From Gemmatimonadota bacterium (GTDB taxonomy: Bacteria; 4572-55; J002): 64,000 nt of DNA. Numbering within the stretch: position 1 is the first letter of the stretch; the number at the start of each line of letters is the position of its first letter. Below are positions 28,125 to 45,709 of this stretch, piece by piece. The notes under the pieces are model-generated. The model ran no database searches and was not told the origin of the DNA. It worked only from the letters and a program-made list of their open reading frames with translations. A program made the translations under genes and the position numbers. The stretch covers positions 1 to 64,000 of the forward strand of contig RFFQ01000013.1 of NCBI GenBank assembly GCA_003697105.1. Direction: 5' to 3'.

Positions 28125-28226
28125 TCCCCCACGAAATCCTTGATTTTAGACCGGCATATCGGTTATGATAAGCTCACTTCAACCCCCACGGCATTAATTC
28201 TTTCCGCATTCAATCCGGAGGCATTC

Positions 28227-29747
28227 ATGAAGATTGCATTTGTGAATATCGGCGGCAGTATGTTTACCTTTCACAACGGTATTGCCGCCCTTTCTGCATA
28301 TATCAAGCACCATAGTGAGCATGAGGTCGCTCTGATCGATATGATTGGCCATCCGCGCCCTCTCAAATTTCAGCATCAGGTGGAGATCATCCAGCCCGAT
28401 GTAATCGCCTTTACCGCCATGACCATATACTGGCCCAATGTACGGGCATTAGCAACGCGGGCAAAGCAAATGAGTTCTGCTAAGACGATTGTGGGAGGAT
28501 ACCATCCGACGTTTGCCCCTGAAGAGTGTATTTCTCATCCGGCGATGGACGTCATTTGCCGGGGAGAAGGCGAGGAAGCCCTACTTGCCTTTCTGAATGC
28601 CCTAGAACGCGGAGAAGATTATACCCGAATTCCAAATCTATGGGTCAAAAAAGATGGAAATTTATATAAAAATGATATTCGTCCGCTGATCGCAAACATG
28701 GATGAGTTACCCTTCTGGGATCGGGACTTATTCAACTATGGTTCGTGGTATGATGCCATGCCAACATCACTCTCTGATTTAGACCGCCCGGAACGGACGG
28801 TCACCCTTGCCGCAAGCCGGGGATGCTACTATGACTGCACCTATTGTAGCAATGAGCCACTGAAAGCGATGTACGGCGGGAAAACATTCGTTCGTACCCG
28901 TTCCGTCGATCATATTATCAAAGAAATGAAGATGCTAAAAGCACGGTACAATCCCGACCTGTTTGAATTTCAGGAAGAGCTGTTTGTGGCACATCTGGAT
29001 TGGCTAGAAGAATTTGCCGATAAATACAAACGTGAAATTGGGCTTCCTTTTAACATTTCATACCGCGAGGAGTTAGCCCGAACCAAAAATATGGAACTTC
29101 TGGCAAAAGCCGGCTGTAACAGCATTGCATTTGGGGTTGAGTGCGGTAGTGAGGAATATCGTAAGAAATATCTGACCCGCCGCATGTCGAATCGAAAAAT
29201 TGAGGAAGCATTTGATCGCACCCACGAACTGGGCATGAAAGCCCTCTCCTTCAACATCATCGGTATGCCGTTTGAGACATACGATCTGATTCAAGAGACC
29301 ATCCAACTCAACCGGCGGTTACAAGCAGATTACCTGCAATGGTTTATTTACCAACCCTACCCCGGAACCATTTTGTATAATATCTGTAAAGAGAATGACT
29401 TGCTGTTGCCCGGCTACACGTCATCTTATATTTCCCTGCGACCGGGCATCAAATTGACCCACATCACCCGCGAGGAATTCCAGCAGTGCATGGAAGATTT
29501 TATGGCACTGCAACGTGAACAACAAGGTTATGACTGGCTCGACATCGCCGCCCAATCCAATGAAACCTTGGTCAATGTCCGCTATGCCACCGAGGAAGAA
29601 CGGTATGACATAATGGATTTATATAATCAGACCTTTCAGCGGGATCATGGGATAAACCGGTGGGAGTGGTTCCGCCGGAACCCAGAAGGCGCAGAAAAAA
29701 CCCCGTCGCCATCTCCAACCGGCAGAACGTCGTCGGAGCCCAGGTGA
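28227..29747 (+). CDS. B12-binding radical SAM protein (class B methylase-like); the C-terminus begins a GNAT domain that continues in another frame
   Basis: GGAGG RBS; 'VGGYHPT', 'RGEGE', 'ASRGCYYDCTYC' (CxxxCxxC), 'GVECGSE', 'PYPGT'. Confidence 0.88.
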   Translation: MKIAFVNIGGSMFTFHNGIAALSAYIKHHSEHEVALIDMIGHPRPLKFQHQVEIIQPDVIAFTAMTIYWPNVRALATRAKQMSSAKTIVGGYHPTFAPEECISHPAMDVICRGEGEEALLAFLNALERGEDYTRIPNLWVKKDGNLYKNDIRPLIANMDELPFWDRDLFNYGSWYDAMPTSLSDLDRPERTVTLAASRGCYYDCTYCSNEPLKAMYGGKTFVRTRSVDHIIKEMKMLKARYNPDLFEFQEELFVAHLDWLEEFADKYKREIGLPFNISYREELARTKNMELLAKAGCNSIAFGVECGSEEYRKKYLTRRMSNRKIEEAFDRTHELGMKALSFNIIGMPFETYDLIQETIQLNRRLQADYLQWFIYQPYPGTILYNICKENDLLLPGYTSSYISLRPGIKLTHITREEFQQCMEDFMALQREQQGYDWLDIAAQSNETLVNVRYATEEERYDIMDLYNQTFQRDHGINRWEWFRRNPEGAEKTPSPSPTGRTSSEPR

Positions 29748-30574
29748 TGCTACCGGTGCGCTTTTCGTTTCAGGGTAAAGAACTCAAAGGCATTCATGCG
29801 ATTGATTATAAAATGGATGTGGTTTTCCCGGGTGAAATACCGCCGCTGGATGGCTTTCAGTCCCGATACGATATCGCATACCGGATCAATATCCCATACC
29901 AGCGCCCCGAACTGGGCTATTTTAAGCGACGCAACGAACGATGGGATAAAGTGAAGTTAGTCAACTACACCGACCAACCGGTAACACCCATCAATCGACT
30001 CAAAAAAGAGATAAAACCCACCCGCCGCTCGCTCTCCCAAAAAGTGCGCCACCGGTTCGATAAATGGCGCTACCCAGTCCAGCAAATCGATCAATTTGAT
30101 GAGAGAGCGGATCGCTTGTGGGAGCGGTGCAAATCGGACTTCGGTCTGGCAATTGTGCGGGATGCTCGTTATCTGAACTGGCGTTACGTGGATTGTCCAG
30201 ATGTCAGTTATCTTAAAATCGGGGTCTTCAGTCCATCTGGAGCAGAATTAAACGGGTGGGCGGTGTTACGTTTGGATGGGATTCATCCCCAGACGGCATG
30301 TTTGGTGGATTGGCTTGTGCCCAATGCGGAAACGGGTATTGCCGAAATTTTGCGGCGCAACGTCGAGCATTCAACCCGGCTCGGCGGCGCTCAATTTTTG
30401 GAGGTCTGTTTTCCAGAAGGTTCTGTACCGGATCGATTGTTCCGGGCACACGGGTACCAACCGGCGCCGGCACCCGCAACGTTGATGGTACATGTTTTCA
30501 ACCCAGATAGAGTGGCAACAGACACGCTACAAAAGACGTGGTACTACACCTTGGGCGACTCCGAGATGTACTAA
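29695..30574 (+). pseudogene. Out-of-frame continuation (GNAT/FemAB-like acyltransferase domains) of the radical SAM gene
   Basis: 'VAISNRQNVVGAQVMLPVRF', 'RDARYLNWRY..P', 'WYYTLGDSE'; no convincing own start; junction at the A6C4 run 29695-29704. Confidence 0.65.
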
Positions 30575-30768: not shown

Positions 30769-31857
30769 ATGGGTAAAATTTTAATTATTGAAGATGACAG
30801 TTACATTCGGATGAATTTGGTTGACATTTTGGAAAGTGAAGGGCATGACGTATTCACGGCTGAAGATGGTCAAGTTGGGATTCGACAAGCAAAAGAGCAT
30901 TTACCAGAGTTAATTTTATGTGACGTCTTGATGCCAAATCTTGATGGATATGGCGTTTTGAAAGAAATCCGGCAAAACCCGCTAACTGCCGGCACGCCAT
31001 TTCTTTTTTTAACGGCAAAAGCCGCTCGTGAGGATTTCCGTCATGGTATGGATTTGGGCGCCGATGATTATCTCGTCAAACCCTTTGAGATTAACAGTCT
31101 AATTCGCACAGTTCGTGCCCGGTTGGAGAAACGGGCACGGGAAGTTGAACAGATCAAGAAATTACGGGAAAACTTGAGCCGCACCCTACCCCATGAATTA
31201 CGAACACCGTTGACGTCCATTATTGGCATGGCAGATTTTCTCCGTACGCCGGAATTGGTCTCGTCAATGGCACAAGTGCATGAAATGGCACAAAACATCC
31301 ACGATAGTGCGATGCGGCTTCATAAACTCATTGAAAATTACTTGCTTTATGCCGAACTGGTGGTCTCTATAGAACGTCCGGAAGACGCCAAATTATGGAA
31401 AGGATCGTCAACTTATATCAATGAGGGGATTCTTCGGTCATTTGCATTAAAACAAGCGCAAATGTATAACCGGGAAGCTGATTTAAACCTCCGGGTGACA
31501 CCCTGTAATGCCCAAATCTCAGAAACCGCTTGGATAAAAATCGTCGAGGAATTGACCAATAATGCCTGCAAGTTTTCTCCAAAGGGGACACCGGTACAGA
31601 TTACAGTGGACTCCGATGACAAAACGGTCGTGATAACCGTCACCGATCAAGGCATTGGGATGACCAACGAAGAAATTGCCAACATTGGGGCATATATGCA
31701 GTTTGAACGCGTCGAACGGGAGCAACAAGGCTCCGGTTTAGGACTCAGTATCGTCAAGTTACTCACACAACTTTCAGATGGTAAATGTGTGATCACTAGT
31801 GAACCCGATAATGGAACATCTGTTCAAGTCATATTACAAGCCGGATCGTCTTCATAA
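30769..31857 (+). CDS. Cytoplasmic hybrid response regulator / histidine kinase (REC-HisKA-HATPase)
   Basis: 'ILIIEDD', 'CDVLMP', 'YLVKPF'; H-box 'HELRTPL'; 'NACKFS', 'DQGIG', 'GSGLGL'. Confidence 0.93.
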   Translation: MGKILIIEDDSYIRMNLVDILESEGHDVFTAEDGQVGIRQAKEHLPELILCDVLMPNLDGYGVLKEIRQNPLTAGTPFLFLTAKAAREDFRHGMDLGADDYLVKPFEINSLIRTVRARLEKRAREVEQIKKLRENLSRTLPHELRTPLTSIIGMADFLRTPELVSSMAQVHEMAQNIHDSAMRLHKLIENYLLYAELVVSIERPEDAKLWKGSSTYINEGILRSFALKQAQMYNREADLNLRVTPCNAQISETAWIKIVEELTNNACKFSPKGTPVQITVDSDDKTVVITVTDQGIGMTNEEIANIGAYMQFERVEREQQGSGLGLSIVKLLTQLSDGKCVITSEPDNGTSVQVILQAGSSS

Positions 31858-31908: not shown

Positions 31909-33285
31909 ATGAATCCATTAATTGAACCCTTCAAAATCAAAGTGGTCGAACCGATCAAAATGACAACCCGTGCCCAACGGGAGCGATTGATCAAAAAAGC
32001 GTATTATAATTTATTTTTTCTCCATTCCAACGATATTATGATCGATATGCTTACGGATAGCGGCACGTCCGCCATGAGCGACGCCCAATGGGCAGGCATC
32101 ATGGGCGGTGATGAAGCTTACGCCGGTAGCCGCAGTTTTGAGCGCTTTGAACAGGTAGTTAAAGACCTAACGGGATACCGTCACATTATCCCCACCCATC
32201 AGGGACGTGCCGCCGAAAAAATCTTGTTTTCCTCAATTGTCAAAAAAGCGGGGGGAGTAATCCCTAACAACACCCATTTTGATACCACCCGGGCAAACGT
32301 CGAATATACCGGCACAACCGCAGAAGATTTGGTCATTGATGAGGGGCATGATCCCGCGTCAACCTATCCTTTCAAAGGGAATATGGACTTAAAAAAACTC
32401 AAAGCCTGCATCGAAAAAGCGGGTCCAGAAAACGTACCGGTTGTGATGATGACGGTCACCAACAATTCCGGTGGTGGGCAACCAGTTTCGATGGAAAATC
32501 TGCGTGCGGTTCGGGACATGGCGCATTCCTATGGTATCCCGTTCTTTTTGGATGCCTGCCGTTTTGCCGAAAATGCGTACTTCATCAAACAACGAGAAAA
32601 AGGATACGCCGATAAAACAATTCGTGAGATCGCCCATGAAATGTTCTCGTACAGTGATGGTTGTACCATGAGCGCCAAAAAGGACGGTTTGGCAAATATC
32701 GGCGGATTTTTGGGGATTAATGATGATGTGCTGGCACAGGATTGCCGCAATTTGCTAATTCTTACCGAAGGATTCCCAACCTACGGCGGCCTTGCCGGGC
32801 GCGATCTGGAAGCCATTGCTCAAGGATTGGATGAGGTCTTGGAAGAAGATTATCTCCGGTTCCGGATTGGGCAAGTCGCCTATCTAGGTGACCAATTAAC
32901 GAAAATGGGGGTGCCGATCATGCAACCACCCGGCGGACATGCTATTTACGTGGATGCCAAATCCTTTTTGCCCCATATTCCAGTAAATCAATTTCCGGGA
33001 CAAGCACTAACAGTAGAACTTTATCTGGAAGCAGGGATTCGCGGTGTCGAGATTGGGAGCGTGATGTTTGGTAAAAAAGACCCCGAAACCGGTACCGAAA
33101 TTCCGGCGGCGTTGGAATTGGTACGTTTAGCCGTACCGCGCCGGGTGTACACCCAAAGCCACATTGATTATGTCGCCGATGCATTTGTACGGATCAACGA
33201 ACGAAAAAAGACCATCCGTGGTTATAAATTTGTGTACGAAGCCCCGTTTTTACGCCATTTTACTGCACGTTTTGAGCGTGTATAG
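31909..33285 (+). CDS. tnaA: Tryptophanase (tryptophan indole-lyase)
   Basis: 'LTDSGT', 'GDEAY', 'HQGRAAE', PLP Lys in 'SAKKD'; 'VEIGS' and 'LRHFT' match tryptophanase rather than tyrosine phenol-lyase. Confidence 0.9.
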   Translation: MNPLIEPFKIKVVEPIKMTTRAQRERLIKKAYYNLFFLHSNDIMIDMLTDSGTSAMSDAQWAGIMGGDEAYAGSRSFERFEQVVKDLTGYRHIIPTHQGRAAEKILFSSIVKKAGGVIPNNTHFDTTRANVEYTGTTAEDLVIDEGHDPASTYPFKGNMDLKKLKACIEKAGPENVPVVMMTVTNNSGGGQPVSMENLRAVRDMAHSYGIPFFLDACRFAENAYFIKQREKGYADKTIREIAHEMFSYSDGCTMSAKKDGLANIGGFLGINDDVLAQDCRNLLILTEGFPTYGGLAGRDLEAIAQGLDEVLEEDYLRFRIGQVAYLGDQLTKMGVPIMQPPGGHAIYVDAKSFLPHIPVNQFPGQALTVELYLEAGIRGVEIGSVMFGKKDPETGTEIPAALELVRLAVPRRVYTQSHIDYVADAFVRINERKKTIRGYKFVYEAPFLRHFTARFERV

Positions 33286-33407: not shown

Positions 33408-33519
33408 CGGCACACTCCCCTAGAAAACCCCTATGTCTATCTCTTACACTTATTATACACCAGATACAATTACCCCATTTTCTATTTAGTGGACATATTC
33501 CCTTTTGGAGGTTTCCAAA

Positions 33520-35148
33520 ATGCTTATTTATATACCGAGGGTTCTGTTTTCGGCAATTCTGATGGCGACTACCCTATTATGTTTAGGAAGTTGCGATGAT
33601 AGCGACAATATGCCCGAACCCCTTTCGATTCAATTCCTTTCTCCGGCAAATGATGCCGTTCTTCGGGAAGATAGGATTGAAGTTCAGATTAACGCTTCAG
33701 CCAACCATGCAGATGCCCGTATCGATAAGGTCGAACTATTTGCGGGAAATCAGCAGGTTGCAACCACAACGGAAGTCCAGACCAATCCTGCCATCGTCAC
33801 CCTGGAGTGGGACGTCTCCAATTTGCCCAACGCCACTTACGAATTAGAAGCAAAAGTCTATGATAACCGCGGTAACACCAAAAGCAGTCAAATCCAGGTT
33901 CAACTCCACCGACAATTAAGAGTTCAAATTACCTCACCGCAAGATGGGCAGATTATCAACAGCAACCAGATACCGGTAACGGTTACGATTAAAACGATTG
34001 CCGCTGATATTGTTGAAGCCATCTTAACGGTTGATGGTGCGGCGGTGGTCACAAAAACCCAAGCACCTTGGGAGTTTACTTGGGATACGGCAGGCTACCC
34101 CCTCAATCAGGAGTACCATCTTCAGGTGACAATTGAAGATGCCGATGGAAACACAGCCCAATCGAATGTCGTGACCATCTGCGTGGGGTGTGAAATCCCA
34201 CCCTTGAGTTTGGCAATCATTTCCCCTCAGGCGGGTGAACAAATTGAAGCCAATCAGATTTCCGTTTCTGGAACGGTAACCAGTAACATTGGGCGAGCCA
34301 TTGAGCGGGTCACTTTGATAGTGAATGATAGCCCGGTGGCAGAGCGCAACCAAGCGCCGTGGGAATTCATCTGGGATACCACCAGCTATCCCGATAGTAC
34401 CACCTGTACCCTTTTCATCGAAGCTGAAGATGAGCAGGGCAATGTGGCACAATCCGAACCGGTGACCGTCTGTGTGCGCTGTGTGGAGCAATTTAGCCGG
34501 CAGCGGGTGGTTGTTCAGGAACAATTTACCGGCGCATGGTGCCAAAACTGTCTGCTTTATGCCGATCCGGCGGCAGATGCGCTGGCAGAAGAATTTGGAC
34601 CCACCCAATTGCTCTCGGTACATTACCATATCCGGGCAGGTTTGTTTGATGATTTTGAAATCGCGGAAGGTGTGGCACGGCTGAACTACTATGCCTTGAA
34701 CAACAGCCTACCCCATGCGGTCTTTGATGGCAGTGTCGTTATTACCGGCGGAGACCCCAGTACAGAAGACGTTTACCGGCAACAAATCAATACCCAATTG
34801 GCAGATGAGCCACCCGTCGGTATTCTGTTGACCGGCACGTTGGGCGCCGGAGAAATAACGGCAAAGATCAAAGCATTTGAACAACTCGCCAATCCCGGTC
34901 TAACCGTTCAATTTGTGATTACGGAGAGTGACTTAACTCACCCCAGCCCCCCGATTCATTTTAACTATGTTGTGCGAGATATGTTGCCCCCCGCCTCGAT
35001 CACCTTACCCAATGAAGGTGATCAAACGGAAGTAAGTCGTTCTTTCGTGTTAGATGACAGTTGGAATATGGATGAAATTCAACTCGTGGTGTTTGTTCAA
35101 GATGATAACACCAAAGTTATTTTACAGGGTCAAGCTATATGGGAATAA
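33520..35148 (+). CDS. Lipoprotein with three Big-type Ig domains and a C-terminal Omp28-like thioredoxin-fold domain (CQNC)
   Basis: GGAGG RBS, lipobox LGS-C; three 'I.SP..G...WDT' Ig repeats; 'EQFTGAWCQNC', 'NYVVRDML', 'WNMDEIQLVVFVQD'. Confidence 0.85.
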   Translation: MLIYIPRVLFSAILMATTLLCLGSCDDSDNMPEPLSIQFLSPANDAVLREDRIEVQINASANHADARIDKVELFAGNQQVATTTEVQTNPAIVTLEWDVSNLPNATYELEAKVYDNRGNTKSSQIQVQLHRQLRVQITSPQDGQIINSNQIPVTVTIKTIAADIVEAILTVDGAAVVTKTQAPWEFTWDTAGYPLNQEYHLQVTIEDADGNTAQSNVVTICVGCEIPPLSLAIISPQAGEQIEANQISVSGTVTSNIGRAIERVTLIVNDSPVAERNQAPWEFIWDTTSYPDSTTCTLFIEAEDEQGNVAQSEPVTVCVRCVEQFSRQRVVVQEQFTGAWCQNCLLYADPAADALAEEFGPTQLLSVHYHIRAGLFDDFEIAEGVARLNYYALNNSLPHAVFDGSVVITGGDPSTEDVYRQQINTQLADEPPVGILLTGTLGAGEITAKIKAFEQLANPGLTVQFVITESDLTHPSPPIHFNYVVRDMLPPASITLPNEGDQTEVSRSFVLDDSWNMDEIQLVVFVQDDNTKVILQGQAIWE

Positions 35149-35178
35149 TCTCAACTTTTATCGATGGAGGAAGTACTG

Positions 35179-35721
35179 ATGAAATCAATTTTTAAGTTAA
35201 GTGCCTGTATTGTGTTGGCAATAACATTTGTTGCCGGAACGGCGATGAGTGCCGAAACGCGCGAATACCAAAAACTACCGGCATTTAGTACCAAAGATTT
35301 AAGTGGTAAACTCGTCAGTTTTGATGATGTCAAAGGTGAAAAAGCCACTTACATCACGTTTTGGGCAACGTGGTGCAAACCGTGCATGGCAGAATTGCCT
35401 CACTTGCAAGAGCTGTACGAGAAATATCAAGAGCAAGGATTGCAAATCATTGGTATGAATGAAGATACCGCCAAGAAAACCGCCAAGGTCAAAAAAGCCG
35501 TTAATCAGAAAAAGCTATCATACCCAATTTTGTTAGACCCAACAGCAGAAGTGGGTAAAAAGTTAGGGATGCCTACAGAGTTACCCTACGGCTTGCTCAT
35601 CGACGGTAACGGAAATATTATTGAAAAAACCATCGGATTTCAAAAAGGCGATGAGGATGCGTTAGAAAAGAAGATCGTTAAACTATTGGGGCTTGAAACC
35701 AGTACGGAGGAATCAAATTGA
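35179..35721 (+). CDS. Exported TlpA/ResA-family thiol-disulfide reductase
   Basis: GGAGG RBS, signal peptide, 'FWATWCKPCMAELP', 'LPYGLLID'. Confidence 0.93.
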   Translation: MKSIFKLSACIVLAITFVAGTAMSAETREYQKLPAFSTKDLSGKLVSFDDVKGEKATYITFWATWCKPCMAELPHLQELYEKYQEQGLQIIGMNEDTAKKTAKVKKAVNQKKLSYPILLDPTAEVGKKLGMPTELPYGLLIDGNGNIIEKTIGFQKGDEDALEKKIVKLLGLETSTEESN

Positions 35722-37364
35722 AACCGCAAATAGCAATCAGTCTCGTCGCGATGGGATTGATGTTGTTGGTTAAGATTCCCACCGCCGGAAGTATTGATCT
35801 TAATTATTCATTTTACAATAATGTGCAATATTCGTTATTTGAAGCGTCGGAGCGCGACAGTCTTGTAGAACGCGCGGAAGTCAATCTTCAAATAGGGTTG
35901 TTGCGTACCGGCATGTTGCTGGAAGCGCGTCAACCTTTACCTAAAGTAGGAGATGCGGAACAAGGCTTTGGTCCCGTCAACGTGCGAAAACTGTTTTTTG
36001 AATTAGAAAAAGATGGGTTTTCGCTCCGTGCCGGAGATTTTCCGGTCTTATTTGGACGTGGATTATCGATCAACCTATTTCGAGATGATGCATTGCGTCA
36101 GGATACCGAACCGGAAGGCATCAAACTTGGCTACCGGAATGATTATGTTCAGGCAACGGCATTCAGCGGGTATGTGGAAAAATTTGTCGGACCCGTTTCC
36201 ACAAATGATGTCAGTTATGAAGTAGATGATACCCGGCAACATCTCTTTCGAGGTGCGGCATCTACGTTTCGTCCATTTACCAATACGGATTCTCCCTTAC
36301 AACCTTTAGAACTGGGGGTGCAATATGTCCGGTTTCGCTCCATCGAAGCCTATCCGTTCCCCCAAGAAACGCGGCGTTACGAAGACCGCCGTACAATGAC
36401 GGGAGGGAGTCTCTTCTATAGCGGTGATTTTTTTGATATTTACGGCGAATACGTCACCGGTAAGCGCATTGAAAACGAACTGTATCCCGATGGAAAAGCA
36501 AAGTTCACCATTGCCGAATACGATACCATCCAAGGAATATACGGCGTTATCAACGCCTTTTGGGGTGATTTTTCGCTTTTTGGCGAATTTAAGGATTATC
36601 AAGGGCTGGGCTTTTTTGATGCCTCCGGTAATTACTCCAAACCGATTGGACAGCTACAATCTCCTGCAAAACCGTACAACAATCCACCGCCCGTTGTCAC
36701 AGAGCATACCAGCCGGTTACTCGGTCGGGATATGTACCAGCCGATCATCCTCAATAACGAACGCGGGTATCGTGTGGAATTAGAGTGGACACCCACCTAT
36801 TCCACCCAGATTTTAGTCGATTATACCCGCGCAGAAAGTCGTGAAGGAGACCTCTATTTTCAGGAATATTACCTTGAATTTGAGCATTCTATTTGGGATG
36901 ATAACCTTTCGTTCATGGGCATGATCGAGCAAGGTGACGTGGGGGAAAAGGCAGACCGCACAGGCGGTTGGCTGAAAACCACGTACCAATTAAATGATAA
37001 ACAATCGATTGCCCTCACGACAGAATACATGGATGGTACGGTCAAAAACGTGGCAGATGAAGTCGGTCAATATTATGTTTTCAGTTTTTCGCAGTCCAAA
37101 GATACACATGAGAACGACTCGTTTTGGCGGGCGCTTCTGAAACGGTCGTGGACCCTCTCCGCCGCGTATGAGCTTAGTAGTGAAGCCGATCAGGATGGGA
37201 AAGATAATTGGTTTTCCTTAGCGATGGATTATAAAGTTTCAGATAATCATCTAGTACGGTTATTCTACGGTGCACGTCGAGCGGGTCTGAACTGCAACGG
37301 AGCAATTTGTGTCCCCGAACCGGCATTTGAAGGCTTCGAATGTCAATTAATTAGCGTGTTTTAA
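35718..37364 (+). CDS. Outer-membrane beta-barrel, DUF6029-like, with C-terminal CxxxxC
   Basis: TTGA overlap with TlpA; signal peptide; 'AGDFPVLFGRGL'; amphipathic beta strands; 'YGARRAGLNCNGAICVPEPAFEGF'; terminal Phe. Confidence 0.75.
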   Translation: MKPQIAISLVAMGLMLLVKIPTAGSIDLNYSFYNNVQYSLFEASERDSLVERAEVNLQIGLLRTGMLLEARQPLPKVGDAEQGFGPVNVRKLFFELEKDGFSLRAGDFPVLFGRGLSINLFRDDALRQDTEPEGIKLGYRNDYVQATAFSGYVEKFVGPVSTNDVSYEVDDTRQHLFRGAASTFRPFTNTDSPLQPLELGVQYVRFRSIEAYPFPQETRRYEDRRTMTGGSLFYSGDFFDIYGEYVTGKRIENELYPDGKAKFTIAEYDTIQGIYGVINAFWGDFSLFGEFKDYQGLGFFDASGNYSKPIGQLQSPAKPYNNPPPVVTEHTSRLLGRDMYQPIILNNERGYRVELEWTPTYSTQILVDYTRAESREGDLYFQEYYLEFEHSIWDDNLSFMGMIEQGDVGEKADRTGGWLKTTYQLNDKQSIALTTEYMDGTVKNVADEVGQYYVFSFSQSKDTHENDSFWRALLKRSWTLSAAYELSSEADQDGKDNWFSLAMDYKVSDNHLVRLFYGARRAGLNCNGAICVPEPAFEGFECQLISVF

Positions 37365-37378
37365 TCAGGGAGGTACTA

Positions 37379-39394
37379 ATGAAAAAAAGGATATTATTAA
37401 CGGTTTTGATATTCGGAATAGCAGTTTCCGGATGGGCGGATATTCCAAAACTCGGCGTTATTGAGCAGTTCACCACAGTGGGAAATGAGTTGTGCGAAGA
37501 GTCCAATCTGTACGTTCAACAATTGAAGGAACATTACGGGGTCAAAAACGCCGTGGTGATTCAATATCACGTGGGAGATAATGACCCATTTTACCAAGCA
37601 AACCACACGGATAACGACGCCCGGGCAGAATATTACGGCGTTGAATATCTGCCAATGGTTGCTACCTCAGGCAATAGCATGGTGCAAGCCACCGATCCAT
37701 ACGATATAAACGTCAAAATGGATAAAGTGTTAGAAACAGATACCCCACTTTATATGAGTGTATTCCATGAAATTGAGGGATCAACGCTCTCGGTAGAAGG
37801 CTCGGTAGTTGCCGCCGGCGAGATAGATGGCACATATAATTTACAAATCGCCGTCATCGAAAAAGAAGTGACAGAAGGAGGCATGACATATTATAATGTG
37901 ATGCGTAAACTTTTACCAGATGGCGCGGGTACTGATTTTTACATCGCCTCTGGGGGAGACGACGCTTATTATGAGTTCTCGCAATCGCTGCAAATCGACG
38001 CCGGCTGGGATACCGATCAATTAGAAGTGATCGTTTTTGTCCAAGACCCAGCAACGCAAGGTATTTTGCAAGCGGTCACCACAGAACTGGTTGAGGCAAC
38101 ACCCTCCCCACACCATATCCGGCTGGTGTCCGAACAACGTGTCCGAATTTTACCCGTGAATACTTTTTTGGAAAATCACTATATGCGCTTCATCAATATG
38201 ATGGACCAAGATGACCAGTTTGACTTTTTGCTGGAAACAGATATGCCGGAAGGTTGGGTGGCGTCTTTTTGTGTGGGACCCATTTGCTTACCGGATTCCG
38301 CACGTATTGCGTTTGAGGCGGGACAATCCGAGGGACAACCCGAAGATGATGGACGACACATGTATGTAACCATCACACCGATGAACACACCCGGCGTCGG
38401 CGATGTCATCTTTACGGCACGCTCCGTAACCTACCCTTCGGTACAGCAATCACTTCATTTCCGGGTCATCACCGATGGTATTGATGTGCTAATCGTCGAT
38501 GCGGATGGTGGTCTGGATAGTGAACAGGGCATTGCCAGCGCTTTGGAGCGCGCAGAAGTTACCTATGGCATCTGGAAAGCATCCACACCCATCACCGGTG
38601 CCGAAATGGCGAATTTCCCGGTGGTCATCTGGAATACCGGTCGGGCATTACCCACATTGCTGGAATCTGACCGAGCCGCCATCCAAGAGTATATGGATAA
38701 CCTCGGCTCGATCCTGATCAGTGGGCAAAATATTGGTTGGGATTTAACCAATGCCGCCAGCCGTAATCGCGATCCGGAATTCTATAGTGGTGTGCTTCAT
38801 GCCAATTTCATCAATGATAATGCATCCAGCATGGCAGTAACGGGTGTTGGGTTTGCGGAAGGTCTGGCATTTAATCTGGTCGATCAAACCTCGCCGGATG
38901 TGGTGGAACCCGTCGATGATAACACCTTTGACCTATACCAATATGGCGAAAGTGAAGTTGCCGGATTGTACACGGGAGCGATGGTCTATCTAGGGTTCGA
39001 TCCGGCACAAATTGATAGTGACGATCAGCGTGACTGGACCATCGCACGTATTTTGAATTACTTTAATTTGGCGGTTGGTGCGGGACCGGTGACCACAGGC
39101 ATCACCCAAACGCCACCAGCCGTAACTCTCCACCAAAATGTGCCGAATCCATTCAATCCCACAACACGTATTCGGTACGAATTACCGCAAAGTAGCACCG
39201 TGAAGCTTACCATTTATGATGTCACCGGACGGTTGGTGCGCACGTTGGTCAACCAACCCCAAGAAAGTGGCATTTATGATGTCCAATGGAATGGTCATGA
39301 TGATGCCGGTCACGTCGTGAATAGCGGCATCTATGTTTATCAATTGGAAACTGAAACGGCGACGCAGACTCAAAAAATGATGTTGTTGAAATAA
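37379..39394 (+). CDS. Secreted Omp28-like protein, paralog 1 (NxxC, first Cys absent) with FlgD-Ig/T9SS-type CTD
   Basis: GGAGG RBS, signal peptide; 'EQFTTVGNELC', 'NDPFY', 'NVMRKLLP', 'VFVQD'; internal CVGPIC; 'NVPNPFNP'. Confidence 0.85.
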   Translation: MKKRILLTVLIFGIAVSGWADIPKLGVIEQFTTVGNELCEESNLYVQQLKEHYGVKNAVVIQYHVGDNDPFYQANHTDNDARAEYYGVEYLPMVATSGNSMVQATDPYDINVKMDKVLETDTPLYMSVFHEIEGSTLSVEGSVVAAGEIDGTYNLQIAVIEKEVTEGGMTYYNVMRKLLPDGAGTDFYIASGGDDAYYEFSQSLQIDAGWDTDQLEVIVFVQDPATQGILQAVTTELVEATPSPHHIRLVSEQRVRILPVNTFLENHYMRFINMMDQDDQFDFLLETDMPEGWVASFCVGPICLPDSARIAFEAGQSEGQPEDDGRHMYVTITPMNTPGVGDVIFTARSVTYPSVQQSLHFRVITDGIDVLIVDADGGLDSEQGIASALERAEVTYGIWKASTPITGAEMANFPVVIWNTGRALPTLLESDRAAIQEYMDNLGSILISGQNIGWDLTNAASRNRDPEFYSGVLHANFINDNASSMAVTGVGFAEGLAFNLVDQTSPDVVEPVDDNTFDLYQYGESEVAGLYTGAMVYLGFDPAQIDSDDQRDWTIARILNYFNLAVGAGPVTTGITQTPPAVTLHQNVPNPFNPTTRIRYELPQSSTVKLTIYDVTGRLVRTLVNQPQESGIYDVQWNGHDDAGHVVNSGIYVYQLETETATQTQKMMLLK

Positions 39395-39400
39395 ATCCCC

Positions 39401-39435
39401 AGCCCGGTACGGGTATCCGTATCGGGCTTATTTTT
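39401..39435 (+). terminator. Terminator-like hairpin between paralogs 1 and 2
   Basis: AGCCCGGTACGG-GTAT-CCGTATCGGGCT followed by TATTTTT. Confidence 0.7.
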
Positions 39436-39466
39436 ATCCACCTTCGGTTGGAAGGAGATTGTACCA

Positions 39467-41443
39467 ATGCGTAAATTGTTTTTAGTATTGTTAGCTCTGG
39501 CTTTTTTGATGCCGGTACGCGGTATGGCGGTAGAACGCACCGTACTGGCAGAATTACAAACAGCAACGTGGTGAGTGTACTGTCCTTGGGCTGAAGCAGC
39601 CATCGATCAGTTGATCGAGGAATACGGTACCGATAACGTCGTTTATATTGCCTATCACTATACTGACGAACTGGAAATCGCCGAAGGAAGTGCACGCTGG
39701 GCATCCTATTATGGCAATGAAGGTACGCCTAATATGTACTTTGACGGGCTCCAAAATGTGTTAGGCGGTTGGGAAGGCTGTTATGACGCTTATCTTGCTG
39801 AATTGCAATCCCGCTGGGCAAACAGTAGCCCGATTCGCCTCGAACTCATCGGGGGAATTGTGGATACGGAAGGATATATCTCGGCAAATGTTACATTAGA
39901 AGGGGACATTCCCGCCGGTATGACCGTCCGCTTTGCCGTTATAGAAAATGATATTATCCTAAATCGCCACTATAATGGGGTATTACGAGACTTACTGGCA
40001 GAAGAAACGCTCAGCATCAGCCAGCAAGGCGAAACGGTTACGTTGGATCGCACCTTCCCCGTAGAAGAGGGTTGGAATTACGAAAATATGGGCGTGGTTG
40101 TATTTGTCCAAAATGATAACACCCACGAAGTCCTTCAAGCCGCTTATTTTGACGCTTCAGATTCTGAATATCTGGTGAGCTTTACGTCCAGCGGCACCGT
40201 TGCGATTTCAGAAGCAGACCAACCCTATGATTTTTATGCCTTGGTGGAGAATGTCGGTCCGAATGACGATACTTACACCATTACAATGAATACCGATGAA
40301 TTACCCGAAGGGTGGAACGCCACGTTTACCATCGGCGAAGACGTGTACGAATCCGAAGCCGAAATTGATCTGGCGTCAGGGGAACAGGTACTTCTCACTA
40401 TCAATTATAATCCGAATAACGTACCCGGTCAGGGCGATGTTTATTTAGAATTAGTCTCCCACGCCGAACCGCGCCTGCAAAAATCAATGAGTTTTCGGCT
40501 GATCTCCGATGTGGAAGTCCTGATTGTGGATGACGCCCTCAATACCGATGCCACCCTGTATGAAACGGTGCTAACCGAAGATGAAACGATATGGGGCACG
40601 TGGGAAGTCCTCCGGGGAGGCAACATTGATAGTGATGAAATTGCGAATATCCCCACCGTGTTATGGATAACCGGTAGCGACGATCGTGAAACCATCACCG
40701 AAGACGATCAAATGGAATTGATCACCTATCTGGAAAACGGCGGATCATTGCTCCTAACCGGTCACAATATCGGGGGCGATATTGCCGCAACTGAATTTTA
40801 CACCGATTTTCTGGGCGCCCGTTATCGTTTCAATAACTTCGGACAAACCACCCTGAACGGGATCGAAGGCAACCCGATTGGCGATGGGTTAGTCCTCGAA
40901 ATTGAACACGATTCCCCAGATGTGGTCATGATGCAGGACGATGTGGATGGTCTGGAACCGGTCTTCCAATATGGAGCAGTGCCCAACCTCTACGCGGCAC
41001 TCGCACATGCGGCAGATACGTACCGGACGGTCTATTTTTCTGTGAGTCTGGATCAAGTATCCGATCCAGACAGCCGGGAAAGTGCCCTATTGCGCTCCTT
41101 GCGCTGGTTGAGAGGCGAATCCACGAACATCGACCCGGTGGAGCAAACATCAATTGCCACCGTCTCACATTACCAACTGGCACAGAATGTACCGAACCCA
41201 TTTAACCCCCGAACCACAATTGCCTATGCGTTGCCGGAACAAAGTCGTGTCAGTATCCATATTTACAACTCTTCCGGTCAATTGATACGAACTCTGGTCA
41301 ATAAGACGCAGAATGCCGGCACATATCACGTCCAGTGGGACGGTACAGATAGTGAACATCACGAAGTCGCCAGTGGGATTTATCTGTATAAACTCGTGAC
41401 AGACAAAGAAACACACATTAAATCAATGGTATTACTCCGGTAA
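39467..41443 (+). CDS. Putative secreted selenoprotein, Omp28-like paralog 2 (UxxC; TGA 39572-39574 = residue 36), 658 aa, FlgD-Ig/T9SS-type CTD
   Basis: GAAGGAG RBS, ATG 39467, MRKLFLVLLALAFLMPVRGMA-VERTVLAELQTATW-TGA-VYCPW in frame with ORF 39575..41443; aligns to EQFTGAWCQNC. Confidence 0.88.
39589..39618 (+). promoter_or_regulatory. Candidate bacterial SECIS element for TGA 39572
   Basis: GGCTG-AAG-CAGCC (39589-39601), loop about 19-22 nt after TGA; adjacent hairpin TCGATC-AGTT-GATCGA (39603-39618). Confidence 0.55.
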
Positions 41444-41465
41444 CCAAGCGGGCATAATCGGGTGA

Positions 41466-41497
41466 AACCCTTAGCATCTACAAAGGTGCTAAGGGTT
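41466..41497. terminator. Intergenic stem-loop between paralogs 2 and 3
   Basis: AACCCTTAGCATCT-ACAA-AGGTGCTAAGGGTT; no U tract. Confidence 0.6.
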
Positions 41498-41549
41498 CAA
41501 TCCCAACAGAACACTCCATACCAAAAGCCCATTCATGAGGAGATTACCG

Positions 41550-43550
41550 ATGAGGCAAATTTTATGGACAAGTGTGGTTTGGTCATTTATTGCCGTCTCC
41601 GCATTTGCAACGGAACGGGTGGTCTTAATGGAAATGTTTACCAGCACCACCTGACCGGTTTGTCCCACTGCGGAGCAGTGGCTTGATAACTGGTATCCTA
41701 GCAATTACGATGACGTGGCAATTATCCGTTACCACATGAATTGGCCCGCCCCCGGGAATGACCCCTTTTATCACGCCAACCCGCTAGAAAACAACGCCCG
41801 GCGAGGGGTTTACGGCGTCAACGGCATACCGGACATGTTTGTGGATGGCGTTTTAAATCCAGGCATACCCTACAGTACCGCCGTCAACCAACGGTTGGAG
41901 ATACCTAGCCCGTTGGAAATCAATGTGGATGGAACATTTGATTGGACTACCAATGAAGGCACCACTACGGTGGAAATCACAGCAACAGAAGACTTCTCTT
42001 ATAATTCATTGCGGATGCAATACGTGATTATTGAAAATAATGTAGCATACACCGGTCCAAACGGACATACACCCCACCATCAGGTGATGCACGATATGGT
42101 ACCAACAGCTTCGGGCGAAAGTTTTGAGATTACAAATGGAGAAACCCTCCTATTCAACCGGAATTTCGTCATTGATGAAAGCTGGGATGCGAATGAATGT
42201 GAGATTGTTGTTTTTGTGCAGGATAATACGAGCCGTGAAGTCTTTCAAGCAATGCATATGTCGCTTGATGAACTGTTTCCTATCCGCCTCCGCTTTGAAA
42301 CAAGCGGCAATACGGCACTGGGTGCGTCCGATGGTGAGTATCCGTTTTACGCCCTCATCGAAAATCAAGACAACCAAGCAGATGTATTTGATGTTGAATT
42401 GACAACCTCTGCACCCGAGGCGTGGTCGATCAATTTTACGCTGGAAGGAGTCACCTACGAGGATGGGGCAGAACTCCCCCTCGATGCCGGTGAAGAAGTG
42501 CCCTTAACCGTGAATATCAGCCCCAATAGCACCGCCGGTGAAGGTTTTGCCACGGTCACCCTCACCTCCCAATCCGAACCACGGGTGGTAAAATCTCTGA
42601 CCTTCCAACTCATTACCAATGATGTAGATGTGCTCGTGATTGACGATGCCAATGATGGTAATATTGAACCGTATCGCGCCGCACTGGAAACAACCGATTT
42701 TGTCTTTGGCGCCTGGGATGTCGCGGTGGGAGGCGCTCTAAATCCAGAGGATCTAGAACAGATTACGACCCTCATCTGGTTTACCGGCGGTGAAGAAGAG
42801 ACCGCTTTAGAACCCGATGAAATCGAGATGTTGACCGGTTACCTCGATAACGGCGGGCAACTGATGCTCTCGGGGCGAAATTTGGGCGTTGCGATTGGCA
42901 CAACAGATTTTTATACTGAATATCTCGGTGCCCATTTCCGGTTCAACAACTTCAGCACCTATGAGGTGAATGGGATTGAAGGCGACCCCATCGGGGATGG
43001 TATCTCCTTCACATTTGAGCAGGATTCCCCAGATGTCGTCCTCCCCCGTCCCGGAGTGGATGGCGTGTCACCGGTTTTTCAATATGGCGATATTCCGCTG
43101 TATGCGGCACTACGGCACGAGACCGAAACCTACCGCACGGTGTACTATTCGATCAGCTTGGAAGGCGTCAATGAAGCCGATGCCCTCGCCCAGCTCATCG
43201 AAAATTCGGTTCTCTGGTTACAAGGGGAAGAAACAGCAATTGAGCCACAAAAAAGTGATGTGGCACGTGTAACTGCCTATCAATTATTTCAAAATGTACC
43301 GAATCCATTCAATCCTCAAACTCAAATTGAATATGCGGTGCCGGTACCTGCAACAGTTCAGTTGAATATCTATTCCGTGACAGGACAATTCATCAAAACG
43401 CTTGTACATCGTCCGCAAAGTGCCGGACACTATCGTGTGATATGGGATGGTACCAACCAGTTTGGAGCTGCCGTAGCCAGCGGAATTTATCTGTATGAAC
43501 TATCGGCTGGGGAACACCGGCTCACCCGTCAGATGGTTCTACTCCATTAA
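41550..43550 (+). CDS. Putative secreted selenoprotein, Omp28-like paralog 3 (UxxC; TGA 41652-41654 = residue 35), 666 aa, FlgD-Ig/T9SS-type CTD
   Basis: GAGGAG RBS, ATG 41550, MRQILWTSVVWSFIAVSAFA-TERVVLMEMFTSTT-TGA-PVCPTAEQWLDNWYP in frame with ORF 41715..43550; next gene reads EMFTSTTCPPC. Confidence 0.92.
41665..41681 (+). promoter_or_regulatory. Candidate bacterial SECIS element for TGA 41652
   Basis: Perfect 7-bp stem CCACTGC-GGA-GCAGTGG starting 11 nt after TGA, with G at the start of the loop. Confidence 0.7.
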
Positions 43551-43621
43551 TCTCACTGGCGAAACCTCAAGGAAGGAGGCTTCGTCTATTTTCCCAACCT
43601 ATGTTTTAAGGAGGTTTTACG

Positions 43622-45709
43622 ATGCGTAAAACACTATTTATGGTTTTAATATTAATACTAATGGTTACGCTTTTCGTACCCAATGTACACGCGGAACGAA
43701 TCGTACTGTTGGAGATGTTTACCAGTACCACCTGCCCACCGTGTGTATCCGCCAATGCGGCGATGAATACGTGGTATCCTGACAACGATGATATTTCGGC
43801 ATTGATTCGCTACCATGTTTGGTGGCCCTCACCGGGCAATGACCCGTTCTATCTGGCAAACACGGCAGAAGCCCAAGCCCGCACCAATTATTACGGGGTA
43901 AATGGGGTGCCCGACATCTTTGCAGATGGACTTTTGGACGCCAGTTTCCCTCCCATTTCTCAGGTTGCTCAACGTCGCGCGGTAGACCCGCCAGTGGATA
44001 TTATGGTTGCCGGCAGCTATGACGTTGATAATAACGTTGGTGAGGCAACTATTACTGTCTCCGCGCTGGAAGACTTCAATTACAATGACCTCCGCTTTTT
44101 CTTCGTTATTACGGAAGATAATTGTGTGTACACTGGTACAAACGGGGATCCGGTACACCATCAGGTGATGCGCGACATGGTGCCAAATGCCAACGGCGAA
44201 AGTTTTGATATTGCCGATGGTGAATCGGTCGTGTTTACCCGATCCTTCTCGCTATCACCCGTACCGGGTGTAAATGAGACCGGAATTCCTGAAAATACAA
44301 ACGTCGTGTGCTGGGTTCAAGATGTAGCAACAAATTCCAGAGAAGTACATCAGGCCGCTTGGGTACCCCTAATGGAACTCGTCCCAGCCGCCGCTATTGA
44401 AGGATATGTCACCGACTGTGCCAATGAGGAAGGCTTGGATGTGACGAATGTCTATGTGGAAGGCACGGGATATGCCACCATCACCGATGAAAATGGATTT
44501 TACCATCTCAATGCCGAACCGGGCACGCACACGGTCGTTTTTGAGCGGTTCGGGTATGTCACACACACCCAAGAAGTCACCTTAGCCGAAGATGATCTAC
44601 TGCCCGTAGATGTCTGTCTGAATGCGTTCGGGCAATCCACGTTAACCGGAACGGTTTCACAGCGGGAAAATGGTAATCCAATTCCAAATGCACCCATTGA
44701 ACTGCTCGGTGTACCAATTAATTCCACCGTAACGGATGAAAACGGGGTCTATACGTTCAGTGTTCCGGGTGGTTACACCTACGAGGTTTCGGTCTATGCA
44801 GATGATCGCGAACCGGTTGTAGAAAGCGTTACCGTACCTGAAAATGAAGTGGTAGAGCACAACTTCCCGATGCGCTTTGTTCAAAGTTTTGAAGCAACCG
44901 ATGGTGGCTTTGATCCCAACCGCCTGTGGGAGTGGGGCGATGCCAACGCAGGTGGTGGCGCTGAAACGGCCTATTTGGGGATGAAGTACTGGTCAACCAA
45001 TATCGACGGTGCATATCCCAGTAATCAACGTGCCGATCTGGTGACACCCGAATATAGCCTGACCCAAGCCAACGCCGCCGATTTATTCTATGCCCACTGG
45101 CTCGATACCAACGAGGGATGGGACGGCTATAATCTTTCCATCAGCACTAACGGCGGCGATGACTGGGTCCGGATCGAACCGGAAGGAGGCTATCCCGGCA
45201 GTGTGATCGGATTATCGGGACAACCTGGCTTCTCCAGTGATAGCAACGTATGGGAGATGGTACATTATGATCTGACCGACTATCTCGGCGAAGTGGTTCA
45301 ATTCCGATTCCGTTTCGGTAGTACCAACAACAACCGGAATTACTTAGGGGTTTGCATTGACTATTTTGATCTCCAAACGGATGTGGAAACGGCGGTAGAT
45401 GAGCCACAAATGACGGGTATTGCCATTCCACAAGCCCTGACACTGAGCCAAAATGTCCCCAACCCGTTCAACCCCAATACGAAAATCCATTTTGCCTTGC
45501 CCCAAACCCAACATATTAATGTCGCCATTTATGCCCTGAATGGACAGTTGGTAAAAACATTGCAAAATGGTGTTCTTTCGGCAGGGGATTACACCGTTAC
45601 TTGGAATGGTACCAATGAGCAAGGCGTACCGGTAGCCAGCGGAACATACATCTACCGCTTGGAAAGCAACGCTGAAATCCTCAGCAAAACCATGGTCTTG
45701 TTGAAGTAA
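43622..45709 (+). CDS. Secreted Omp28-like paralog 4 (CPPC) with two carboxypeptidase-regulatory-like domains, a jelly-roll domain and FlgD-Ig/T9SS-type CTD
   Basis: AAGGAGG RBS, signal peptide; 'EMFTSTTCPPC', 'WPSPGNDPFY', 'HQVMRDM'; two 'TDENG.Y' repeats; 'NVPNPFNP'. Confidence 0.9.
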   Translation: MRKTLFMVLILILMVTLFVPNVHAERIVLLEMFTSTTCPPCVSANAAMNTWYPDNDDISALIRYHVWWPSPGNDPFYLANTAEAQARTNYYGVNGVPDIFADGLLDASFPPISQVAQRRAVDPPVDIMVAGSYDVDNNVGEATITVSALEDFNYNDLRFFFVITEDNCVYTGTNGDPVHHQVMRDMVPNANGESFDIADGESVVFTRSFSLSPVPGVNETGIPENTNVVCWVQDVATNSREVHQAAWVPLMELVPAAAIEGYVTDCANEEGLDVTNVYVEGTGYATITDENGFYHLNAEPGTHTVVFERFGYVTHTQEVTLAEDDLLPVDVCLNAFGQSTLTGTVSQRENGNPIPNAPIELLGVPINSTVTDENGVYTFSVPGGYTYEVSVYADDREPVVESVTVPENEVVEHNFPMRFVQSFEATDGGFDPNRLWEWGDANAGGGAETAYLGMKYWSTNIDGAYPSNQRADLVTPEYSLTQANAADLFYAHWLDTNEGWDGYNLSISTNGGDDWVRIEPEGGYPGSVIGLSGQPGFSSDSNVWEMVHYDLTDYLGEVVQFRFRFGSTNNNRNYLGVCIDYFDLQTDVETAVDEPQMTGIAIPQALTLSQNVPNPFNPNTKIHFALPQTQHINVAIYALNGQLVKTLQNGVLSAGDYTVTWNGTNEQGVPVASGTYIYRLESNAEILSKTMVLLK

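Follow-up and report, generated by a model that had tools for sequence, protein, structure and literature searches.

The DNA considered here, referred to below as the window, is a stretch of 64,000 nucleotides (nt; positions 1 to 64,000 of the forward strand of contig RFFQ01000013.1) from a Gemmatimonadota bacterium whose genome of 4.18 Mb is a metagenome-type assembly (GCA_003697105.1) of 199 contigs, 96.85% complete, and the element of interest within it is the gene at 41550-43550, a candidate for an exported selenoprotein that carries selenocysteine (Sec, U) in its redox motif. Under translation table 11 the open reading frame (ORF) of this gene starts at GTG 41715 (41715..43550, 611 residues), as the original prediction, made from the sequence alone, had stated in proposing that ordinary gene callers would miss the complete gene. 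Its further statements that a GAGGAG, ATG 41550, a signal peptide (judged by eye) and a TGA codon lie upstream in the same frame, and that this TGA aligns with the first Cys of the CxxC motif of the next gene (T-C-P-P-C), all hold as well. A second in-frame ATG, at 41535, overlaps the GAGGAG and is a less likely start than ATG 41550. Upon readthrough translation the frame 41550-43550 contains a single TGA, ends in TAA and gives a protein that begins with MRQILWTSVVWSFIAVSAFATERVVLMEMFTSTT-U-PVCPTAEQWLDNWYP, with PVCPTAEQW directly after U, to be compared with ERIVLLEMFTSTTCPPCVSANAAMNTWYP around the motif of the neighbouring Cys gene at 43622-45709 and with the stretch ERIVLLEMFTSTTCPPCVSAN of that gene. 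The features of the locus are collected in Table 1.

Table 1. Genes and sequence features at the locus, in window positions (SECIS, selenocysteine insertion sequence; T9SS, type IX secretion system; Ig, immunoglobulin; pLDDT, predicted local distance difference test)
Feature	Positions	Strand	Remarks
Paralog with Big_7 Ig repeats, then a C-terminal W-C-Q-N-C Omp28-like module	33505..35148	+	
ResA/TlpA-like thiol-disulfide oxidoreductase (redoxin), membrane-anchored or periplasmic	35164..35721	+	FWATWCKPC; stop codon TGA
DUF6029 protein, probably an outer-membrane beta-barrel	35718..37364	+	PF19494 71 bits; weak Porin_4
Paralog G-N-E-L-C (first Cys replaced by Asn)	37379..39394	+	Architecture as in the two window selenoprotein genes
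Terminator-like hairpin	39401..39428	+	12 pairs then T run; between 37379-39394 and 39467
Second predicted selenoprotein gene, W-U-V-Y-C	39467..41443	+	658 residues; architecture as in the gene at 41550-43550
TGA read as selenocysteine, upstream gene	39572..39574	+	
Two SECIS-like hairpins, upstream gene	39589..39618	+	GGCUG-AAG-CAGCC; UCGAUC-AGUU-GAUCGA, loop of the latter 34 nt after UGA
GAGGAG, Shine-Dalgarno-like	41537..41542	+	7 nt 5' of ATG 41550; direct sequence reading
Predicted selenoprotein gene, T-U-P-V-C	41550..43550	+	666 residues, Sec at residue 35; TGA read through
Predicted Sec-type (secretory) signal peptide	41550..41609	+	MRQILWTSVVWSFIAVSAFA; judged by eye
Thioredoxin-fold subdomain	41613..41903	+	Predicted model, fold and profile matches
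TGA read as selenocysteine	41652..41654	+	First position of UxxC
SECIS-like stem-loop	41654..41694	+	Upper stem CCACUGC/GCAGUGG (41665-41671 with 41675-41681)
Omp28-type beta-sandwich subdomain	41904..42269	+	PF11551; 2r2c and 5y1a matches
Ig-like beta-sandwich	42288..42617	+	Middle-region model residues 3-112, pLDDT about 95; no Pfam match
Class I glutamine-amidotransferase-like (GATase1)/ThuA-like fold	42630..43220	+	Predicted model and fold matches
C-terminal FlgD-Ig/T9SS type A sorting domain	43299..43538	+	TIGR04183 25.1 bits (cut-off 23)
Cys paralog T-C-P-P-C	43622..45709	+	Two CarboxypepD_reg domains, MAM-like domain, T9SS tail

The readthrough protein passes the Pfam cut-off for Omp28 (PF11551, 58.9 bits against 34.9, residues 87-238), gives 42 bits with FlgD_ig, and with DUF1223 (PF06764) falls just below the threshold (30.6 against 30.7 bits). 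An AlphaFold model of residues 1-250, made from a 24-row alignment, has a pLDDT of 92.1 and a predicted template modelling score of 0.88, with a helix of low pLDDT (residues 2-16) in the region of the signal peptide. It places a strand at 25-31, U35 and C38 at the start of a helix (38-52), a second strand at 56-62 and P94 before a strand at 95-98; as modelled, the core is of thioredoxin type, a beta-alpha-beta unit in which the motif sits at the N-terminal end of helix 1 and strand 3 is preceded by a conserved Pro. A beta-sandwich follows at residues 122-238. The second Cys of the motif (C38), P94 and G100 are invariant in all 24 aligned rows. Among known structures the top Foldseek match is HBP35 (5y1a, E 5.9e-15, TMq 0.75, 255 columns), followed by 2axo (4e-8) and Omp28 2r2c (7.7e-6), and a profile search of Protein Data Bank (PDB) sequences likewise puts 5y1a first (E 1.2e-9), together with many thioredoxins, such as 1fo5 at 1.7e-7. 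The profile alignment sets FTntwCayCp over FTAEWCGYCP of HBP35, and U35/C38 align with C48/C51. The thioredoxin fold that the original prediction had assigned is supported by model, fold and profile matches, and its description of a 666-residue Omp28-like selenoprotein with a FlgD-Ig/T9SS tail by the matches to PF11551, FlgD_ig and TIGR04183. The middle region, modelled with an overall pLDDT of 89.0, includes a domain whose fold matches are 5fms, 2gk3, 4jqs and 1t0b (TMt 0.54-0.60); as this region has no Cys in either selenoprotein of the window, the GATase1/ThuA-like domain is probably not catalytic as an amidotransferase. Pfam has no match for this GATase1/ThuA-like domain, which is also present in four further large proteins encoded on contigs C97, C95, C115 and C145.

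The gene does not stand alone in this genome. A search of the whole genome in six-frame translation, with TGA read through and the N-terminal 250 residues as query, gave seven paralogs, of which four have UxxC, two CxxC (43622-45709 and 33505-35148) and one NxxC (37379-39394) at the aligned column. The four UxxC paralogs are two genes of the window and one each on contigs C24 and C185. The second window gene lies directly upstream and resembles the first in its signals: AAGGAG, ATG 39467 and a signal peptide precede AVERTVLAELQTATW-TGA-VYCPWAEA, and ORF lists begin it at GTG 39575, directly after the TGA. The C24 paralog (L043:432-1445, minus strand) encodes 337 residues up to a conserved ...MILLK end, which is followed by a TGA stop; with an internal and a terminal TGA, one codon would serve as Sec and as stop within one gene. 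The C185 paralog (L044:163-2202, plus strand) has a CarboxypepD_reg and MAM-like body as in the Cys gene at 43622-45709. Comparison of these paralogs strongly supports a total of four selenoprotein genes in this genome, two of them within the window. The original prediction had found the selenoprotein at 41550-43550, and had missed both the upstream gene with its TGA at 39572-39574 and the two located elsewhere in the genome.

Beyond this genome, homologs were examined in two samples. In the first, which comprised 41 genomes (this one and 40 others), nine genomes had a match, and among the matches listed 12 of 32 contained exactly one TGA; the TGA occupied the aligned column in all 10 of those 12 that were fetched, the other two both belonging to genome G037. 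The second, a scan of one genome per species, yielded 79 loci which, as the search patterns were taken from an alignment of three sequences, are biased towards the FTSTT/WPxPGNDPFY subfamily; the titles of the corresponding metagenome-assembled genomes (MAGs) name Zixibacteria, WOR-3, Ignavibacteria, Cloacimonetes, Marinimicrobia, Gemmatimonadota, TA06, Calditrichia and others. Applied to these loci, a profile of the 24-row alignment recognised 107 domains, of which three that did not cover the N-terminus were set aside. At the motif column of the remaining 104, from named MAGs of phyla of the Fibrobacteres-Chlorobi-Bacteroidetes (FCB) group, there are 42 TGA, 61 Cys and one residue that is neither, and in the U forms inspected, translation from the furthest-upstream ATG within 45 codons gives an N-terminus that resembles a signal peptide. 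TGA and Cys alternate at exactly this column, which was one of the checks put forward with the original prediction. The use of Sec for the N-terminal Cys of CxxC in a thioredoxin fold, with Cys orthologs or paralogs, is the classic pattern of bacterial selenoproteins. Because TGA stands at the same column in three further paralogs and in 42 of the 104 homologous domains elsewhere, the TGA pattern of the gene is far beyond chance, and from these comparisons it is strongly supported that the in-frame TGA at 41652-41654 encodes selenocysteine in the active site of a predicted exported thioredoxin-like protein. In Zixibacteria and related MAGs (L050, L092, L047, L070, L071 and L055), tandem arrays of two to four short UxxC paralogs of about 350 residues were also observed, many of which share a near-identical GCUGAUCUGGUCUUAGAUCAGC hairpin after the TGA.

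It could be argued that the TGA is a true stop, that the product begins at GTG 41715 (611 residues) and that the 34 codons upstream are either a decayed relic or a small ORF in their own right, the gene being N-terminally truncated or a pseudogene; table 11 does yield exactly the ORF 41715..43550, and TGA is a common stop in this genome. However, a protein starting at 41715 would lack its signal peptide and redox motif as well as strand 1 and helix 1 of a fold modelled at pLDDT 92, and the same truncation would be needed at the same codon in four paralogs and 42 of 104 domains, each time with a conserved, signal-peptide-bearing frame kept upstream and with a hairpin that happens to lie downstream, which makes this account highly improbable. 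An error for TGC or TGT in sequencing or assembly, for which the metagenome-type assembly in 199 contigs might give some reason, has next to no probability: four genes here and numerous assemblies of other genomes share the codon, and over 39400-43600 contigs from separate assemblies of two DNA runs (depth 22.7 and 24.9) show zero differences, TGA at 41652-41654 included, a result that excludes an assembly slip, although both runs are possibly the source of this assembly and the samples are then not independent. A third DNA run contributed two short pieces only over this stretch, and among the runs listed for it there was none of RNA.

The history of the alternation was approached by a FastTree phylogeny of 122 N-terminal modules, unrooted and with the U/C column masked, after 3 of 125 rows with fewer than 150 residues had been dropped. 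At least 17 changes between U and C are required on this tree, eight of which are forced by well-supported branches, whereas shuffled labels need 38.6 changes on average and never fewer than 31; support is weak, 39 of the 119 inner branches being open. The U gene at 41550 and the Cys gene at 43622 form a sister pair (support 96), and the five nearest other rows are all Cys forms, whereas the genes at 39467 and on contigs C24 and C185 constitute an all-U clade (support 99). From this topology it is reasonable to infer that the 41550 gene may have gained Sec after a tandem duplication.

The machinery to decode UGA as Sec is complete, a point that had been proposed for checking the original prediction: selA, selB, selD and tRNA-Sec were all found above curated cut-offs. 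With the TGA in the contigs of both runs and the TGA/Cys alternation among homologs, each of the three outcomes that the original prediction had named as refuting it was looked for, and all three turned out in its favour. The selB match (383.8 bits, cut-off 242.25) spans profile positions 1-579 of 581, selA reaches 585 bits (cut-off 267.9), and tRNA-Sec scores 63 bits (gathering score 47) and is reported by ARAGORN as tRNA-SeC with anticodon tca. selD (355.9 bits, cut-off 125) itself has one in-frame TGA (L010, contig C12:941-1864, minus strand), and the selenophosphate synthetase of this organism is probably also a selenoprotein; selA and selB have no internal TGA. Otherwise TGA is an ordinary stop here, as it ends 504 of the 1829 stop-to-stop frames of at least 300 codons, as well as the redoxin gene of the cluster, and as conserved genes other than selD have no internal TGA. 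A general reassignment of TGA to sense is ruled out by this stop-codon usage. The usage also bears on the possibility of readthrough without Sec, in which Cys or Trp would be inserted by near-cognate suppression or TGA would be a sense codon. Cys is the homologous residue in 61 of the 104 domains, and misinsertion of Cys for Sec under selenium shortage is known in other systems, both of which could be counted in favour of such readthrough; however, with TGA a frequent terminator that is absent from the interior of conserved genes other than selD, with a full Sec machinery at hand and with SECIS-like hairpins in the same position as in selenoprotein genes known from bacteria, it seems very unlikely.

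These hairpins lie directly 3' of the codon. Bacterial SECIS elements, in the description of bSECISearch, have their apical loop about 16-37 nt from the UGA and a G early in the loop. In the gene at 41550 a GGA loop begins 17 nt after the UGA on a 7-bp upper stem, and the 42 nt after the codon fold at -18.1 kcal/mol (z-score -3.9). In a comparison of 52 U forms with 73 C forms, after removal of duplicate DNA, the mean over these 42 nt was -12.0 kcal/mol in U forms and -7.6 in C forms (Mann-Whitney p 6e-10), the shuffle z-scores were -1.04 and -0.26 (p 7e-5), and perfect hairpins of at least 6 bp whose loop lies 16-37 nt past the codon were present in 40 of 52 U forms, compared with 19 of the 73 C forms (Fisher p 2e-8), p-values which are overstated because the sequences are kin. 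Among hairpins of at least 5 bp, a G occupies loop position 1 or 2 in 42 of 46 U forms and in 16 of 36 C forms.

The overstatement of these p-values is one of several points that weigh against the reading of 41550-43550 as a gene for an exported selenoenzyme. The U forms are more GC-rich than the C forms (0.57 vs 0.52), 12 of the 52 U forms are without a perfect 6-bp hairpin in a simple scan and 19 of the 73 Cys forms have one, and an ungapped alignment of the 52 U-form downstream regions reveals at least three hairpin registers among clades and no single consensus. Taken singly, each window hairpin is only modestly better than shuffled sequence: over 69 nt the fold of the 41550 gene reaches -22.6 kcal/mol with a z-score of -1.67, and 13 of 200 shuffles are as good, while the upstream gene gives a z-score of -1.34, its fold being equalled by 23 of 200 shuffles. 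Further, the two window proteins miss the cut-off of 200 of NF045500, the only curated selenoprotein model of this kind, with 59.8 bits (41550-43550) and 66.3 bits (39467-41443). In addition, Sec incorporation is a prediction, and the surface location, the redox function and any link with neighbouring genes are inferred, in a scheme that gives electrons no route across the outer membrane.

Taken together, the data nevertheless allow a model to be proposed, and it is very probable that 41550-43550 encodes a 666-residue predicted exported selenoprotein with a UxxC redox motif in an HBP35-like module. The part of the model that is strongly supported has SelB and tRNA-Sec decode the UGA at 41652-41654 as Sec, aided by the stem-loop just 3' of the codon. 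Sec is there the first, attacking residue of U-x-x-C where helix 1 begins in a thioredoxin fold that is fused, as in HBP35, to an Omp28-type beta-sandwich; the upstream gene and two other paralogs are built alike. The protein may leave the cytoplasm by Sec-dependent export and then, by way of its C-terminal sorting domain, pass through the T9SS to be displayed on or released from the cell surface, possibly to act there as a thiol-disulfide (selenylsulfide) oxidoreductase. A Sec nucleophile could be more reactive and harder to over-oxidise than the Cys of the sister gene. The TlpA/ResA-like redoxin would probably supply reducing equivalents, and the DUF6029 protein would probably be the outer-membrane partner. 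Candidate substrates may include disulfide-rich extracellular proteins and oxidised surface proteins, or the role may lie in heme or metal handling as proposed for HBP35.

The setting of the gene is consistent with parts of this model. PorU, the T9SS component searched for, is found in the genome at 649.9 bits (cut-off 420), and the PorU model has at least 51 matches there, the majority confined to the C-terminal sorting-domain portion of the model, which suggests a large set of type IX secretion cargo in this organism, which derives from a hot-spring metagenome. On one strand the cluster runs from the CxxC paralog at 33505 through the redoxin, DUF6029 and NxxC paralog genes and the hairpin to the two Sec genes and the Cys gene. 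Little weight can be placed on the hairpin at 39401-39428, or on such sites generally, as the promoter and terminator scans overall were not above shuffles. Further upstream lie genes for a B12-binding radical SAM protein (28140-29747), a 304-residue ORF without Pfam match (29660-30574), a response-regulator/histidine-kinase hybrid (30769-31857) and a beta-eliminating lyase of tryptophanase-like type (31909-33285). At this level of similarity the genome has one copy each of the redoxin and DUF6029 genes. When neighbours were counted in flanks of up to 3 kb around the 79 loci, a redoxin or DUF6029 homolog adjoined the HBP35-like gene in 36 and both did so in 27, and the order redoxin, DUF6029, HBP35-like on one strand recurred in 24 loci of several phyla; the redoxin/DUF6029 module accompanied 13 of 29 loci with U forms and 14 of 50 C-only loci. 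The motif of the neighbouring redoxins has Cys in 37 of 37 cases, three from the earlier loci included. The three genes thus look like a conserved module, judging from gene order. It is possible, though doubtful at this stage, that they form an undescribed three-part envelope redox system of the FCB group, in which reducing power from the periplasm would reach a catalyst displayed at the surface by the T9SS, with repeated swaps of Cys for Sec in the catalyst. If so, the catalyst would belong to the small number of bacterial selenoproteins with a role outside the cytoplasm.

Several consequences follow for annotation and for experiment. Standard gene calling truncates these genes and removes both the signal peptide and the active site; four are hidden in this way in the present genome, and about four in ten family members are affected in the sample of named MAGs (42 of 104). 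Given this truncation and a curated model that catches no tested U form, selenoproteins are undercounted in Zixibacteria, WOR-3, Gemmatimonadota, Marinimicrobia and related groups. An exported and probably surface-displayed selenoenzyme is unusual, and the tandem Sec/Cys sister pair at 41550 and 43622 offers a natural comparison for what Sec adds. Finally, the order of the redoxin, DUF6029 and HBP35-like genes provides a hypothesis for the little-understood HBP35/Omp28 family.

Among known systems, the nearest by name is NF045500, 'Omp28_seleno' (Omp28-related selenoprotein, an equivalog_domain model of 377 positions), which is the best NCBIfam match of both window selenoproteins and likewise describes an Omp28-related exported protein that contains Sec; residues 18-242 align with profile positions 34-271, and U35 falls near position 51. 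The kind is therefore known to curators, and the family, which the original prediction could not confirm as undescribed, is not undescribed. As their scores lie far below the cut-off, however, the window proteins are outside that equivalog and would be Sec-bearing relatives in other subfamilies with a different architecture, to which Ig-like and GATase1-like domains absent from the 377-position model have been added. None of 15 other tested U forms reaches the cut-off either; the nearest are Marinimicrobia-type proteins at 174-188 bits, which indicates that NF045500 covers one narrow clade. The Omp28 lipoprotein family (PF11551, NF033782, 2r2c) is approached through the PF11551 match and through 2r2c, which matches the beta-sandwich half; it differs in that NF033782 gives 47.7 bits against a cut-off of 150, that the protein studied here has a cleavable-looking signal peptide ending in AFA and no lipobox Cys, and that its redox motif lies outside the solved fragment 2r2c. 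DUF1223/Atu2684 (PF06764, 2axo) shares the thioredoxin-like half, with FTSQGCASCPPAD aligned to the motif, but has no T9SS tail. Another example of a thioredoxin-fold family with Sec/Cys exchange is NF041054, 'ResA-like WAxxUGC motif-containing protein'; that family is ResA-like, whereas at the loci compared here the ResA/TlpA-like neighbour has Cys without exception and the exchange of U and C takes place in its HBP35-like partner.

The closest structural counterpart is HBP35 of Porphyromonas gingivalis, which also combines a thioredoxin fold bearing W/T-C-x-x-C-P with a beta-sandwich and a T9SS C-terminal domain, and which differs in having Cys and not Sec, in its length of 344 residues without Ig-like and GATase1-like middle domains, and in an identity of 18%. 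According to PMC2907840, the C-terminal domain of HBP35 serves transport to the outer membrane, hemin binding maps to M135-P344, the protein complements an E. coli dsbA mutant, and it reduces insulin in vitro better than E. coli thioredoxin, an activity that is lost in the C48S/C51S mutant. The literature searched, which left most subscription journals outside, yielded nothing on Omp28, DUF1223 or HBP35 as selenoproteins nor on a T9SS selenoproteome; in it DUF6029 turned up only in a paper on polysaccharide export, and for selenoproteins of Zixibacteria the paper listed, PMC8318568, appears to concern other organisms. Relative to the sources found, three things appear to be new: how broadly Sec and Cys alternate within the HBP35/Omp28 superfamily, the connection with HBP35, and the conserved order of redoxin, DUF6029 and HBP35-like genes.

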